A stretch of 27,605 bases of DNA from Nitrospirales bacterium (GTDB lineage Bacteria; Nitrospirota; Nitrospiria; Nitrospirales; NS-4), in the NCBI GenBank assembly GCA_035642795.1, contig DASQRT010000324.1, positions 1 to 27,605 on the forward strand, written 5' to 3'. The notes under the pieces are model-generated. The model searched no databases. It was not told where the DNA came from and saw only the letters and a list, made by a program, of their open reading frames with translations. Numbering within the stretch: the first letter of the stretch is position 1; the number at the start of each line of letters is the position of its first letter. Shown piece by piece: positions 3 to 4,478 of the stretch. Both the position numbers and the translations under genes were made by a program.

Positions 3-2258
3 ACCGTGGGGACCGTCACCGAGATCTACGACTATCTTCGCCTGCTGTTCGCCCGCATCGGCCGCCCGCACTGCCCGCAGTGCGGCGATCCGATCGCCGC
101 GCAGACGGTCCAGCAGATGGTGGATGCACTCATGGCGCTGCCGCCTGGTGCGAAGCTCTCCGTGCTGGCACCCATCGTGCGGGACGGCAAGGGCGAATAC
201 CGGAAAGAACTCCAAGATTCCCGCCGCGCGGGATTCATCCGGGCGCGGATTGACGGGAAGCCGCACGATCTCGCAGACGAGATCGCGCTCGACAAGCAGA
301 AGAAGCACACCATCGAGATCGTGGTGGACCGCGTGGTCCTCAAGCACGATGACCCAACGATGCAGCGGCTGGCGGACTCATTGGAGATCGCGCTCAAGCA
401 AGCCCACGGGCTGGTCGTGATTGATCTGGATGGAAAGAAGGACTTGATTTACAGCGAGAAGCTGGCCTGCGTCCGCTGCGGGTTCAGCTACTCGGAGCTG
501 ACCCCCCGCCTCTTCTCCTTCAACAGCCCGCATGGGGCCTGTCCCGCCTGCGATGGTCTAGGCCACGAGCCGCCAAGGGGCTGCCCCGTGTTCAGCGAAG
601 ACGATGAATACGAGGAAGAGGATTACGGCTCGCTGACGCTCTGCCCGATCTGCAAGGGCGACCGGCTGAAACCCGAGAGCCTCTCGGTCCTCATCGACCG
701 GAAGTCCATCGCCGCGGTCACGCGCCTCTCGATCCGGGACGCGGCCGAGTTCTTCCAGCGATTGAAGCTGACCGAGCGCGAGCAGTTTATCGCCCACCGC
801 ATCCTCAAAGAGATCCGCGAGCGGCTGGGTTTTCTCATCAACGTCGGGCTGGACTACCTGACATTGGATCGGGCCGCGGCAACGCTCTCCGGCGGGGAGG
901 GCCAGCGCATCCGGCTTGCCACGCAGATCGGCTCCGGCCTGGTTGGCGTGCTCTACATCCTGGACGAGCCGTCCATCGGCTTGCACCAGCGGGACAACCA
1001 GCGGCTGCTGGACACGCTGCTCCGGCTGCGGGATCTCGGCAATACCGTGATCGTGGTCGAGCACGACGCCGAGACGATGCGGCGCGCGGACTACATTCTG
1101 GACCTGGGTCCCGGCCCCGGCGTGCATGGGGGATCCGTTGTAGCGAAGGGCTCACCGGCCGATGTTATGGCCAACAAGGATTCCCTAACCGGGCAATACC
1201 TGCGCGGAGACATGAACATCACGCTCCCGCATCGGGCTCGCCAGGCGGGACGCTACCTCATCGTCGTCAGCGCCAGGGAGCACAATCTCAAGAACATCAC
1301 GGTGAAGGTCCCGCTGGGGCTGCTCACGTGCGTGACGGGCGTGTCAGGGTCCGGCAAGAGCACGCTGCTCTTCGACGTCCTGTACCGGAGCCTGCGGGAG
1401 TTGCTCTATGGAGAGAAAGAGCGCGGCGTGCCCAAGAGGCCGTGGATTGCCGGATGTTCGGATATCAAGGGCATCGAGCACATCGACAAGATCGTCAACA
1501 TCGACCAGTCGCCGATCGGGCGCACGCCACGGTCCAATCCGGCGACCTACACCGGCCTGTTCACGTACATCCGGGAGTTCTTCGCGAACCTGCCCGAGTC
1601 GCGGGTGCGCGGCTACAAGTTAGGCCGCTACTCATTCAACGTGAAGGGCGGGCGGTGCGAGGCGTGCCAGGGCGGCGGGCTCATCAAGATCGAGATGCAC
1701 CTCCTGCCGGACGTCTATGTGACCTGCGAGGTCTGCAAGGGCCGGCGGTACAATCGGGAGACTCTGGAGGTCCGCCACAAGGAGAAGAGCATCGCCGACG
1801 TCCTCGATATGACCGTCGAGGAAGCGCTGGCGTTTTTCCAGCACCTCCCCCTCATCAAGGGCAAGCTGCAGACGCTCTTCGACGTGGGGCTGGGCTACAT
1901 CAAGCTCGGTCAGTCGGCCACCACACTCTCGGGCGGCGAAGCGCAGCGAGTGAAGCTCTCCCGCGAGCTTTCCAAGCGGGCGACCGGGCGGACCCTCTAC
2001 ATTCTGGACGAGCCCACCACTGGCCTGCATTTCGCGGACATCCAGATGCTCCTCGAGGTCCTCAACCGTCTGGTGGAGTCTGGCAACACCGTCGTGGTGA
2101 TCGAGCACAACCTCGACGTCGTCCGTAACGCCGACTGGATCATCGACCTGGGGCCGGAAGGCGGCGATCGCGGCGGCGAAGTCGTCGCCGCGGGCACGCC
2201 CAAGGAAGTCGCGGGTGTGAAGGCTTCCCACACGGGGCGGGTTCTGCGCGGGGTGTGA
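3..2258 (+). CDS. uvrA: Excinuclease ABC subunit A, 5'-truncated by the window edge; lacks the insertion domain
   Basis: [18 protein letters not shown], UvrB-binding domain, Zn-binding CxxC pairs, [12 protein letters not shown] and [11 protein letters not shown] signatures, Walker [10 protein letters not shown], two LDEP Walker B motifs. Confidence 0.97.
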
Positions 2259-2289: not shown

Positions 2290-2553
2290 TCAGAGTTTGT
2301 TTTCGATGGCGTAGCGCACCATCTGCGCCACGTTCCGGATGCCGAGTCGGCGCCCGATGTTCACACGGTGCGTTTCGGCTGTGCGCGGGCTGATGCCCAA
2401 CTTCTCGCCGATCTGCTTGCTGGTATACCCGTGGGCCACCAGGCTTAGCACTTGACGCTCGCGCGGCGTGAGGCGCGGGGTCACTCGGCGTGAGTTCTTC
2501 ATGTCTAGGGCGGGGTCTTTGCGTTTCGTTTTAGCGGTCAAGCGTAGAGTCAT
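2290..2553 (-). CDS. Stand-alone LuxR/NarL-type HTH protein (GerE-like, 87 aa)
   Basis: LTPRERQVLSLVAHGYTSKQIGEKLGISPRTAETHRVNIGRRLG; ATG at 2553 downstream of AGGAGGAGG; no receiver or ligand-binding domain. Confidence 0.85.
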   Translation of the reverse strand: MTLRLTAKTKRKDPALDMKNSRRVTPRLTPRERQVLSLVAHGYTSKQIGEKLGISPRTAETHRVNIGRRLGIRNVAQMVRYAIENKL

Positions 2554-2592
2554 GATGTGCAGAAACCTCCTCCTTGAGCATGGATGCACAGC

Positions 2593-2622
2593 ATCATAGC
2601 CTGATCGCAAGCCGAAAGACAA
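2593..2622 (-). promoter_or_regulatory. Putative sigma70 promoter of the luxR-HTH gene
   Basis: Minus strand TTGTCT-N18-TATGAT, about 40 nt upstream of ATG 2553. Confidence 0.5.
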
Positions 2623-2695
2623 TCGGGGAAACCTAGGAATGAACAACAGGAACCGGGTCGACCAGGGAGGTGCCGCATTTTTCCTGGTTTTTCCG

Positions 2696-2722
2696 TGTCA
2701 CCTTTGCCGAAATGGCGTGTCT
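2696..2722 (+). promoter_or_regulatory. Candidate ECF-type (autoregulatory) promoter of the sigma factor operon
   Basis: TGTCACC-N16-GTCT just upstream of the sigma gene, resembling ECF -35/-10 layouts; pattern match only. Confidence 0.25.
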
Positions 2723-2737
2723 CACGGAGTATAGGAG

Positions 2738-3292
2738 ATGAATGCGGGCGGGATGGCGGCGTCGGACTACCAACTATTGGACCGCTACGCGACCGGCGAC
2801 GAGTCGGCCTTCGAGGAGCTGGTCACGCGCCATCAGAAGACCGTCTATGACCTGGCGTACCGAATGCTGGGGAACCATGCCGACGCGGCCGACTTGGCGC
2901 AGAAGACGTTCGTACAAGCCTTCCTCCATCATCGGTCCTTCAAGCGCGAGTCCAGCTTTCGGACCTGGCTCTATCAGATCTGCCTTAACCAATGCCGCAA
3001 CGCGCTCCGTGATCGGGCCCGGCTGGCGCATGAGGATGTGGACGAGCTGGCGCTTGCGGCCCCGCAGGATACCTTTGCGGAGGCCGCCAAGTCCGAGCTA
3101 CGGGACCGTCTGGGGCAGGCGATCCGGACCCTGCCGGCGAGACAGCGGGAGGCTCTGGTGCTGCGCGTGTATCACAACCATGCCTTCGCGGATATCGGGG
3201 TGATCATGAGCTGTTCCGAAGGGACCGCGAAGGCCAATTACCATCATGCGGTGGACAAACTCCGCCGTGTCCTGATGGCGGGTGAGGGATGA
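2738..3292 (+). CDS. ECF RNA polymerase sigma factor (sigma-24 family)
   Basis: Region 2 (DLAQKTFVQAF, SFRTWLYQICLNQCRN) and region 4 (LPARQREALVLR...SEGTAKANYHHA); alternative start at Met 2753. Confidence 0.95.
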   Translation: MNAGGMAASDYQLLDRYATGDESAFEELVTRHQKTVYDLAYRMLGNHADAADLAQKTFVQAFLHHRSFKRESSFRTWLYQICLNQCRNALRDRARLAHEDVDELALAAPQDTFAEAAKSELRDRLGQAIRTLPARQREALVLRVYHNHAFADIGVIMSCSEGTAKANYHHAVDKLRRVLMAGEG

Positions 3293-3816
3293 ACATGACC
3301 TGCAATGAGATCAAGGAATTGACCGTACCGTACCTGGAACTGGACTTGGAGCCGCCCCGCGTCCGGGACGTCACTACCCACCTGAACGGGTGCGCTGGCT
3401 GTCGTGCCGAGATGGAAGCGGTCCGCCAGGTCCTCGTCCGAGTGAAGGGGATGGCGGTGCCGGACCCGGGCGACCGATTTTGGACGGAATTCCCGGAAAA
3501 AGTTCGCCGTGGACTGGCCCGCGAAAGGCCAACTGGCCGCTCTGTTGGGAACGCAACCTGGATGCCAAGGTGGCCGCTGGCCCTCGCGGCGTCGCTGTTG
3601 CTCGTCGTCGGCGCCTGGTCCCTGAAAGGCCTGCTCGATAGAGGACTAGTGCCGCCCGGGCAATCCGTGACGCAGGGTACTATCACTGCGGACCTGCCGA
3701 GCCTCGGCGATGCGGACTGGGAGGCATACTGGGAGGATGATCCCGACACGGTCCTGGTCGAGATGGCGACGCAACTGGATCGCCAGACCATGGACCGGTT
3801 GCTTGCGGATATTTGA
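3289..3816 (+). CDS. Zinc-binding anti-sigma factor (zf-HC2/ZAS) with one TM helix
   Basis: ATGA overlap with the sigma gene; HLNGCAGC (HxxxCxxC); TM WPLALAASLLLVVGAWSL; short acidic C-terminal tail. Confidence 0.85.
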   Translation: MNMTCNEIKELTVPYLELDLEPPRVRDVTTHLNGCAGCRAEMEAVRQVLVRVKGMAVPDPGDRFWTEFPEKVRRGLARERPTGRSVGNATWMPRWPLALAASLLLVVGAWSLKGLLDRGLVPPGQSVTQGTITADLPSLGDADWEAYWEDDPDTVLVEMATQLDRQTMDRLLADI

Positions 3817-3830
3817 AAGAAAGGAGCGTT

Positions 3831-4478
3831 ATGTACCCGATCACGCGTACAATCCAGGCCGTCTTTACCGTCGCGTTGGTAGGAGTTCTGGTCTCACCCT
3901 CCGGGGCCCAGGAGACGGGCAGACCGGGCGGTCCGTCCTCGACTCCACCGGTGATGCAAGAACCCGAGCGCATGACGCCGCCGGAGCGCGGCGGCAAGGA
4001 CATGGAGGAACGCATCCGGCACTTCGAAGCCAAGAGGAGGGAGAAACTGCTGCAGGCCTTGCAACTGGACGAGGCCACCCGTACCAGGCTTACCCAGCGA
4101 CTTGAGCAACTGGACCAGAAAGCGCAAGACTTGCGCCGCCAGCGGCAGGAAGCCGTGCAAGCCTTGCGTGAGCAAGCCAAGGGGCTGCGCAAGGAGATAC
4201 GGCGAGGGCAGCGCAACGGCGGTGGGCGCGGCCCGGAGGGGACTCCGCCTGCGGGAGGCAGCCCGGCCGATAACAGCTCCTTGCGGCAGACGTTAGAACG
4301 AGTCTATGCGGTGGAGGACGCCATGACGGGCTTGCGGCGGGAACGCCTGCAGGTAGCGCGCGACTTGCTGACGCCCGAGCAGCAAGTCAAGTTCCTCCTT
4401 TTCACCGTTAGGTTTCAGAAGGAGATGCATGAACGGCTGCTGCGGGAACAAGGTGGACAGGAAGGCGGGCGGCGGTAA
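3831..4478 (+). CDS. Secreted helical protein, Spy/CpxP/periplasmic heavy-metal-sensor-like
   Basis: SD AAGGAG before ATG 3831; signal peptide ending SPSGA-QE; coiled-coil body; C-terminal LLTPEQQVKF (LTxxQ motif). Confidence 0.7.
   Translation: MYPITRTIQAVFTVALVGVLVSPSGAQETGRPGGPSSTPPVMQEPERMTPPERGGKDMEERIRHFEAKRREKLLQALQLDEATRTRLTQRLEQLDQKAQDLRRQRQEAVQALREQAKGLRKEIRRGQRNGGGRGPEGTPPAGGSPADNSSLRQTLERVYAVEDAMTGLRRERLQVARDLLTPEQQVKFLLFTVRFQKEMHERLLREQGGQEGGRR

Follow-up and report, generated by a model that had tools for sequence, protein, structure and literature searches.

The closest described relatives of the protein analyzed here are the class I UvrA proteins, known from E. coli and from solved structures of the Geobacillus (2r6f/3uwx), T. 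maritima (3pih), M. tuberculosis (3zqj/9ga2-5), and C. thermocellum (9gxk) proteins. These UvrAs have two ABC ATPase modules, three zinc modules, a UvrB-binding domain, a DNA-contact surface made of signature domain II and zinc module 3 (Zn3), and an insertion domain (ID) of about 110 to 125 residues (Pfam PF17755). The ID is listed in reviews among the elements unique to UvrA (PMC7835731). In M. tuberculosis, cryo-EM work from 2025 placed the IDs at the center of DNA clamping and melting, base flip-out, and lesion hand-off to UvrB, and these structures showed an asymmetric pair consisting of a "recognition" ID and a "support" ID (PMC11985968). Removal of the ID has been studied in engineered proteins. 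E. coli UvrA Δ290-400 incised a damaged 50-mer normally and supported Mfd-coupled repair, and it discriminated poorly between damaged and undamaged DNA on plasmids; a Geobacillus ΔID protein still incised short damaged substrates and had no defect in vitro (PMC3025350). Ecm16-ΔID lost DNA binding altogether (PMC10192343). In the open-access full-text literature, we found only engineered ID deletions described and no natural ID-less UvrA.

Two other types of UvrA bear on the comparison. Class II UvrAs (D. radiodurans UvrA2, 2vf7; Ecm16, 7sh1; DrrC) have no UvrB-binding domain or zinc module 1 and keep the ID, on which they depend (PMC10192343). Fused double UvrAs (NF001885-type, about 1800 aa) often have a second unit that is ID-less and carries a short linker.

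The window analyzed here is a stretch of 27,605 nucleotides that makes up one whole contig of a Nitrospirales MAG (1.89 Mb, 352 contigs, 93% complete). A uvrA gene in frame +3 is open from base 3 and ends in a stop codon at 2256-2258, and its translation gives a 751-aa UvrA fragment (Table 1). Because the contig begins there, the 5′ end of the gene is open and about 99 N-terminal codons are missing; the full-length orthologues are 832 to 867 aa long (n = 28). The gene stands alone. In a congener, uvrA is flanked upstream by a divergent glyoxalase/UbiE-type methyltransferase pair and on the other side by a convergent LuxR gene. Downstream of uvrA in the window lie a convergent LuxR/GerE regulator (2290-2646, minus strand), an ECF sigma factor (2738-3292), a putative zf-HC2 anti-sigma factor (3289-3816), and a 221-aa open reading frame without a Pfam match (3813-4478), and the order of these genes (2290-4478) is kept in a congener.

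Table 1. Features of the window uvrA gene (positions in the window) and coordinates of the type C paralogue loci (positions in their own loci).
Feature	Position	Strand	Evidence or remark
uvrA, partial CDS	3..2258	+	751 codons + stop
Zinc module 1, first CxxC (CPQC)	72..83	+	Cys invariant in ortholog alignment
UvrB-binding domain (PF17760), residues 34-141	102..425	+	Pfam E 2.5e-35
R...E pair in RLADSLE (= E. coli R216/E222)	inside 102..425	+	Motif conserved
Zinc module 1, second CxxC (CVRC)	468..479	+	Ligand columns invariant
Zinc module 2, first CxxC (CPAC of CPACDGLG, starts nt 540)	540..551	+	Ligand columns invariant
Acidic linker, 26 residues, in place of the ID	564..641	+	Spacing, alignment, composition
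Zinc module 2, second CxxC (CPIC of CPICKGDRL)	642..653	+	Ligand columns invariant
ABC signature I (LSGGE)	885..899	+	Motif
Walker A of second ATPase module (GVSGSGKST)	1338..1364	+	Motif
Signature-domain-II DNA-contact region and zinc module 3 with hairpin (CEAC ... CEVC)	1503..1760	+	Essentially identical to canonical UvrA
ABC signature II (LSGGE)	1926..1940	+	Motif
Type C loci	L119:642-3458(-), L120:1008-3899(+), L121:1064-3853(+), L122:505-3312(-), L142-L146		

The window protein shares the two ATPase modules, the three zinc modules, the UvrB-binding domain, and the signature-II/Zn3 surface with class I UvrA, and it is 52 to 60% identical to the solved UvrAs (Foldseek). It differs from them at the ID, where it has a predicted-disordered acidic linker of 26 residues. 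A sequence-only reading of this DNA had described a 26-residue acidic stretch between CPACDGLG and CPIC that contained the run EDDEYEEED and an extra Cys, and our translation confirmed this description. The linker (HEPPRG...SLTL) has nine D/E and one K/R, for a net charge of -8; eight of the nine residues of the EDDEYEEED run are D/E. That reading had also held that the UvrB-binding domain was kept and the ID lost, and both parts stood up. UvrA_inter (PF17760) was found in the window protein at an E value of 2.5e-35, and a Pfam search with the ID-domain HMM, UvrA_DNA-bind (PF17755), gave no match there. When the window protein was aligned with Geobacillus UvrA (2r6f) by phmmer, query residues 1-190 matched chain residues 117-304 and query residues 205-749 matched chain residues 415-953. 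Because the alignment comes in two such blocks, about 110 residues of 2r6f, which are the ID, are left unmatched. TIGR00630 likewise matched in two stretches, of which the second begins at model position 396, so that the ID part of the model was skipped; in the relatives, the matches skip model positions of about 289 to 398. The distance between the two halves of zinc module 2, measured uniformly in about 130 UvrA genes, was bimodal, at 16 to 32 residues (ID-less) or 106 to 138 residues. It is 107 to 138 in canonical UvrA and 26 in the window protein.

It is probable that the window protein is a working damage sensor of excision repair, a class I UvrA from which the ID was cleanly excised and in which the rest was kept. 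Even in its truncated form, the protein scored above the cut-offs of both class I models (1170.4 bits against 1147 for NF001503; 1121.4 bits against 729.8 for TIGR00630). The Walker A motif of ATPase module II and both LSGGE signatures lie within the window. The Walker A motif of module I falls beyond the contig end; because the first ~99 residues are missing, the N-terminal ATPase site of the window protein is seen only in its orthologues, and in the 28 full-length ones it is invariant (G34-S41). All six CxxC pairs of the three zinc modules are present. Their 12 Cys ligands are invariant in the alignment, and the Walker and signature columns are invariant as well in the same 28 orthologues. 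The predicted UvrB-binding domain has a conserved RLADSLE motif, and the R...E pair within it, which in E. coli (R216/E222) has been named as the UvrB-contact pair (PMC3025350), is kept in the Nitrospirales ID-less proteins. The signature-II/Zn3 region of these proteins is almost letter-for-letter canonical. We also found uvrB, uvrC, and mfd encoded in the same MAG. Each of five closed g8 genomes has a single UvrA gene, which matches TIGR00630 at positions 2-288 and 399-923 only, and all five have uvrB. Thus, since these closed genomes have uvrB and no other UvrA, an ID-less protein can be the only UvrA of a genome whose excision-repair genes are otherwise normal. We infer that the window protein is active in repair.

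A mechanism can be proposed on this basis. An ID-less UvrA would most likely still dimerise and use two ATPase sites; signature domain II and the Zn3 hairpin would most likely form its DNA-binding surface, and the well-conserved UvrB-binding domain would recruit UvrB. Zinc module 2 keeps its four Cys, which would be bridged by the acidic, predicted-disordered linker. Damage would be sensed without the ID clamp, as in those laboratory ΔID mutants in which incision persists, and in most ID-less lineages the ID-bearing paralogue would presumably share the repair work. The deletion boundaries of the laboratory proteins (E. coli Δ290-400, Geobacillus ΔID) are nearly identical to those of the natural form, and they too retain the UvrB-binding domain. 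Unlike them, the natural form is fixed and is conserved through a phylum, has a linker whose negative charge is conserved, and usually occurs with an ID-bearing paralogue. Some published results speak against a working sensor, namely, the poor discrimination of the E. coli ΔID protein, the behavior of Ecm16-ΔID, and the role of the IDs in M. tuberculosis. Furthermore, an ID-bearing paralogue is retained in most ID-less lineages, so repair there may not rest on the ID-less protein by itself. Wagner and colleagues reportedly described, in 2011, a dependence of ΔID E. coli on photolyase. For this reason, we looked for a photolyase as a compensating partner; there was no FAD_binding_7 (photolyase/cryptochrome) match in the 93%-complete MAG, which gives such a partner no support here.

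The sequence-only reading had proposed a distinct UvrA architecture, and this proved to be a conserved form, the converse of class II, rather than a single case. The short form was present in 40/40 relatives sampled in the same order, which cover four families and include many single-contig genomes, with linkers of 17 to 26 residues. We mapped it across the phylum by scanning 301 Nitrospirota genomes with a 130-aa probe that covers zinc module 2. When the probe was tested locally, ID-less proteins gave contiguous alignments of at least 97 bits and ID-bearing proteins gave split alignments of at most 80 bits. The ID-less form was found in 195 of the 301 genomes, many of them closed. ID-less matches occurred in families f1, f2, f3, f14, f19, and f21-f38, and this probe gave none in f6-f9, f12, f13, f15, f16 (0/54), f17, f18, and f20 (0/13). 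The probe also matched weakly in f5, f10, and f11, where it probably picked up fused double UvrAs, whose second unit is ID-less; this was seen in one genome each of f5 (G122) and f11 (G308). Nitrospira-type nitrite oxidisers are among the lineages whose canonical UvrA has no ID. In a search of a representative library with the 130-aa zinc-module-2 segment, fused double UvrAs dominated the matches. At the 50% identity used for clustering that library, canonical clusters probably conceal the ID-less Nitrospirota proteins.

Several observations on individual relatives were made along with this survey. Extra insertions that the window protein does not share occur in some ID-less orthologues: one of 17 aa inside the UvrB-binding domain, and one between zinc modules 2 and 3 that is about 14 aa long and reaches about 29 aa in L029. 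The insertion-carrying orthologues are L011, L012, and L015, from the same genus, and L017, L019-L023, and L029. One Nitrospirales genome (G318; family f3, genus g24) is listed at 16 Mb in 20 contigs, compared with 2 to 5 Mb for its relatives, and could be a composite bin or otherwise unusual.

Three types of UvrA occur in the phylum: type A, which is canonical and has the ID; the ID-less form; and type C, a divergent paralogue. Type A proteins are 942 to 976 aa long; they align with the window protein in one block on each side of the ID, at 62 to 72% identity. Maximum-likelihood analysis joined the ID-less proteins and type A in one Nitrospirota clade (SH-aLRT 96), in which the window protein was nested with ID-bearing UvrAs, and type C formed a separate long-branch clade (SH-aLRT 100). 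By its position in this tree, the window protein is orthologous to the ordinary class I UvrAs of the phylum. The ID-less proteins fell into three subclades, consisting of Nitrospirales, of f19 with one MAG, and of f21/f25/f26/f37 with one MAG. The pattern did not change when the ID columns were dropped. Forcing the ID-less proteins together cost 39.7 log-likelihood units, and a single origin of the ID loss was thereby marginally rejected (AU p = 0.041, for a group that was named after a first tree was seen and with outgroups picked by similarity to the query). From this rejection, two or three independent losses of the ID would be marginally favored. The linkers of the three ID-less clades do not align with one another.

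Although their sequences differ, the linkers resemble each other in charge. The linker was net acidic in 21/21 ID-less proteins examined and in the ID-less unit of two fused doubles, and it contained 4 to 10 D/E and 0 to 2 K/R in all of these. Its net charge was -3 to -8 in every ID-less protein examined and its length was 12 to 28 residues; canonical IDs, unlike these linkers, are charge-balanced. In the 28 orthologues, D/E made up 30.5% and K/R 3.0% of the linker, compared with 11.9% and 13.2% of the rest of the protein. Identity between families was 0 to 27% in the linker and 56 to 76% elsewhere. Structure modeling, which the sequence-only reading had suggested, was done with AlphaFold2 on a full-length congener 95% identical to the window protein. 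It returned a confident UvrA fold (pLDDT 83, pTM 0.73; TM 0.81 to both 3uwx and 2r6f by Foldseek), in which pLDDT fell below 50 only at residues 292-306, the linker, and in several short loops. The linker is thus predicted by the model to be disordered. Since its composition is conserved and its sequence is not, it would be a disordered segment whose charge may matter, and a charge-dependent role is plausible. The persistent negative charge may lower non-productive binding to undamaged DNA, which is the defect of the E. coli ΔID protein.

A stronger claim, made in outline in the sequence-only reading, would be that the acidic loop is a functional module that replaces the ID, acting as a DNA mimic, as an autoinhibitory plug of the DNA groove, or as a docking site for a partner. 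The net charge found in all linkers examined, the excess of D/E over the remainder of the protein, and the recurrence of acidity in three clades and in the fused doubles despite such low linker identity all fit this idea. However, the predicted disorder and the variable length do not favor a module, and we found no motif common to the linkers across clades and no candidate partner. A flexible acidic connector may merely be the cheapest closure of a solvent-exposed zinc knuckle. We consider a dedicated module unlikely.

The other proposal that deserves weight concerns the type C paralogue. Type C proteins are 900 to 990 aa long, have both PF17760 and PF17755, and are 46 to 55% identical to the window protein. 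The insert between the halves of their zinc module 2 is exactly 102 aa, which corresponds to 106 residues in the uniform spacing measurement; their residues in the signature-II/Zn3 DNA-contact region are different, and they score slightly below the NF001503 cut-off. At least 176 of the 301 Nitrospirota genomes have type C; the counts are lower bounds, as the scan under-detects in f19, where at least 4/6 genomes have a second UvrA match. The distribution of type C over the families mirrors that of the ID-less form, and all three ID-less clades carry it. There are exceptions in both directions. The g8, g19, and g9 genomes have the ID-less form only, with type C in 0/20 g8 genomes, all of which are closed or near-closed. 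Type A occurs together with type C in 8/54 f16 genomes; ID-bearing lineages are mostly without type C, and f16 is the only one in which it was found. Whether a second full-length uvrA accompanies the window gene, a question raised in the sequence-only reading, had a split answer. None was found in the 93%-complete MAG by searches with the window protein and a same-genus type C, and one is present in 6/6 genomes of the same genus, as type C, and in most ID-less lineages. Because the MAG is incomplete and all six congeners have type C, its absence here may reflect incompleteness. In two Nitrospiraceae genomes, type C has an in-frame stop (G243:C8:73284-74576 and G116:C4:190474-191691; one TGA, one TAG), perhaps through decay of the copy or through a sequencing error.

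This pattern suggests the hypothesis that the ID could be lost safely once a second UvrA carried one, or that the two proteins work together. The clade of f21 and f26 counts against a working sensor there, in that the R...E UvrB-contact pair of its ID-less proteins is altered. In this third ID-less clade, L139 (f21) and L141 (f26) have Q or K for R and D or N for E, and the co-resident type C proteins (L144, L145) keep R...E. UvrB docking may have moved to the type C paralogue in this clade.

Under a division of labor, the ID-less UvrA would be specialised, for example, for Mfd-coupled repair, in which recognition of the damage by UvrA is less important, or would be half of an asymmetric heterodimer with type C that has one ID per dimer, like the fused double UvrAs. 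The family-by-family co-occurrence with type C, the scarcity of type C in ID-bearing lineages, and the presence of mfd in the window genome agree with this. So do the fused double UvrAs, in the same phylum and elsewhere, whose ID-less second unit has a similar acidic linker. In published work, the E. coli ΔID protein is biased towards transcription-coupled repair (PMC3025350), and the "recognition" and "support" IDs of M. tuberculosis are asymmetric (PMC11985968). However, the ID-less protein is the sole UvrA, alongside uvrB, in g8 and g9 genomes; therefore, a homodimer must suffice there. Type C was also not found in the window MAG at its 93% completeness, and with three independent origins at most, the co-occurrence is beyond statistical testing. 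Overall, we find a division of labor unlikely. A more specific version, in which the ID-less UvrA and type C form an asymmetric system equivalent to a split fused double, the linker occupies or shields the DNA groove or the ID docking site of the ID-less protomer, and this asymmetry explains why ID loss is tolerated and recurs, is quite unlikely.

The fused doubles themselves are not the group to which the window protein belongs. The window protein is a single unit that scores 571 bits against the NF001885 cut-off of 3054, and its orthologues of 832 to 867 aa exclude membership. Fused doubles of 1845 to 1862 aa were seen in sister orders (f5 and f11), at L133 (G122:C36) and L132 (G308:C17), and their second unit is ID-less with a 27-residue Trp-rich acidic linker. 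Contiguous ID-less matches to zinc module 2, at about residues 1200 to 1340, were common among the fused double representatives.

A class II-like UvrA with a role other than excision repair, such as tolerance of DNA-binding drugs, is very improbable. The window protein does resemble class II in that one accessory domain has been removed and in its length (about 840 aa). However, it has the UvrB-binding domain and zinc module 1 and lacks the ID, which is the reverse of class II and contradicts membership by domain content. It also lies inside the class I clade, scores above the class I equivalog cut-offs, and occurs without any other UvrA in some closed genomes that have uvrB. Finally, the idea that the short form is an assembly deletion or a pseudogene, which might be raised because the gene is cut by the contig end in a MAG of 352 contigs, is almost certainly wrong and is ruled out by conservation in the relatives and across the phylum, with the architecture in 195/301 genomes (many single-contig), open frames, identities of 56 to 95%, and invariant catalytic and zinc residues.

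The window protein is thus a real and conserved natural variant of a known protein, and probably a recurrent one. A large part of the phylum has a canonical UvrA without the domain that structural models make central. That domain has probably been discarded more than once, and the rest of the protein is under strong conservation. In current annotation, the ID-less and ID-bearing forms are both named "excinuclease ABC subunit A." The ID-less proteins make up a natural ΔID series with which the need for the ID can be examined, and the convergent acidic linker would have a role open to simple mutagenesis. The ID-less/type C pair may reveal a functional asymmetry in the UvrA dimer. If the asymmetric pairing were true, bacterial damage sensing would be intrinsically asymmetric and would need at most one ID.
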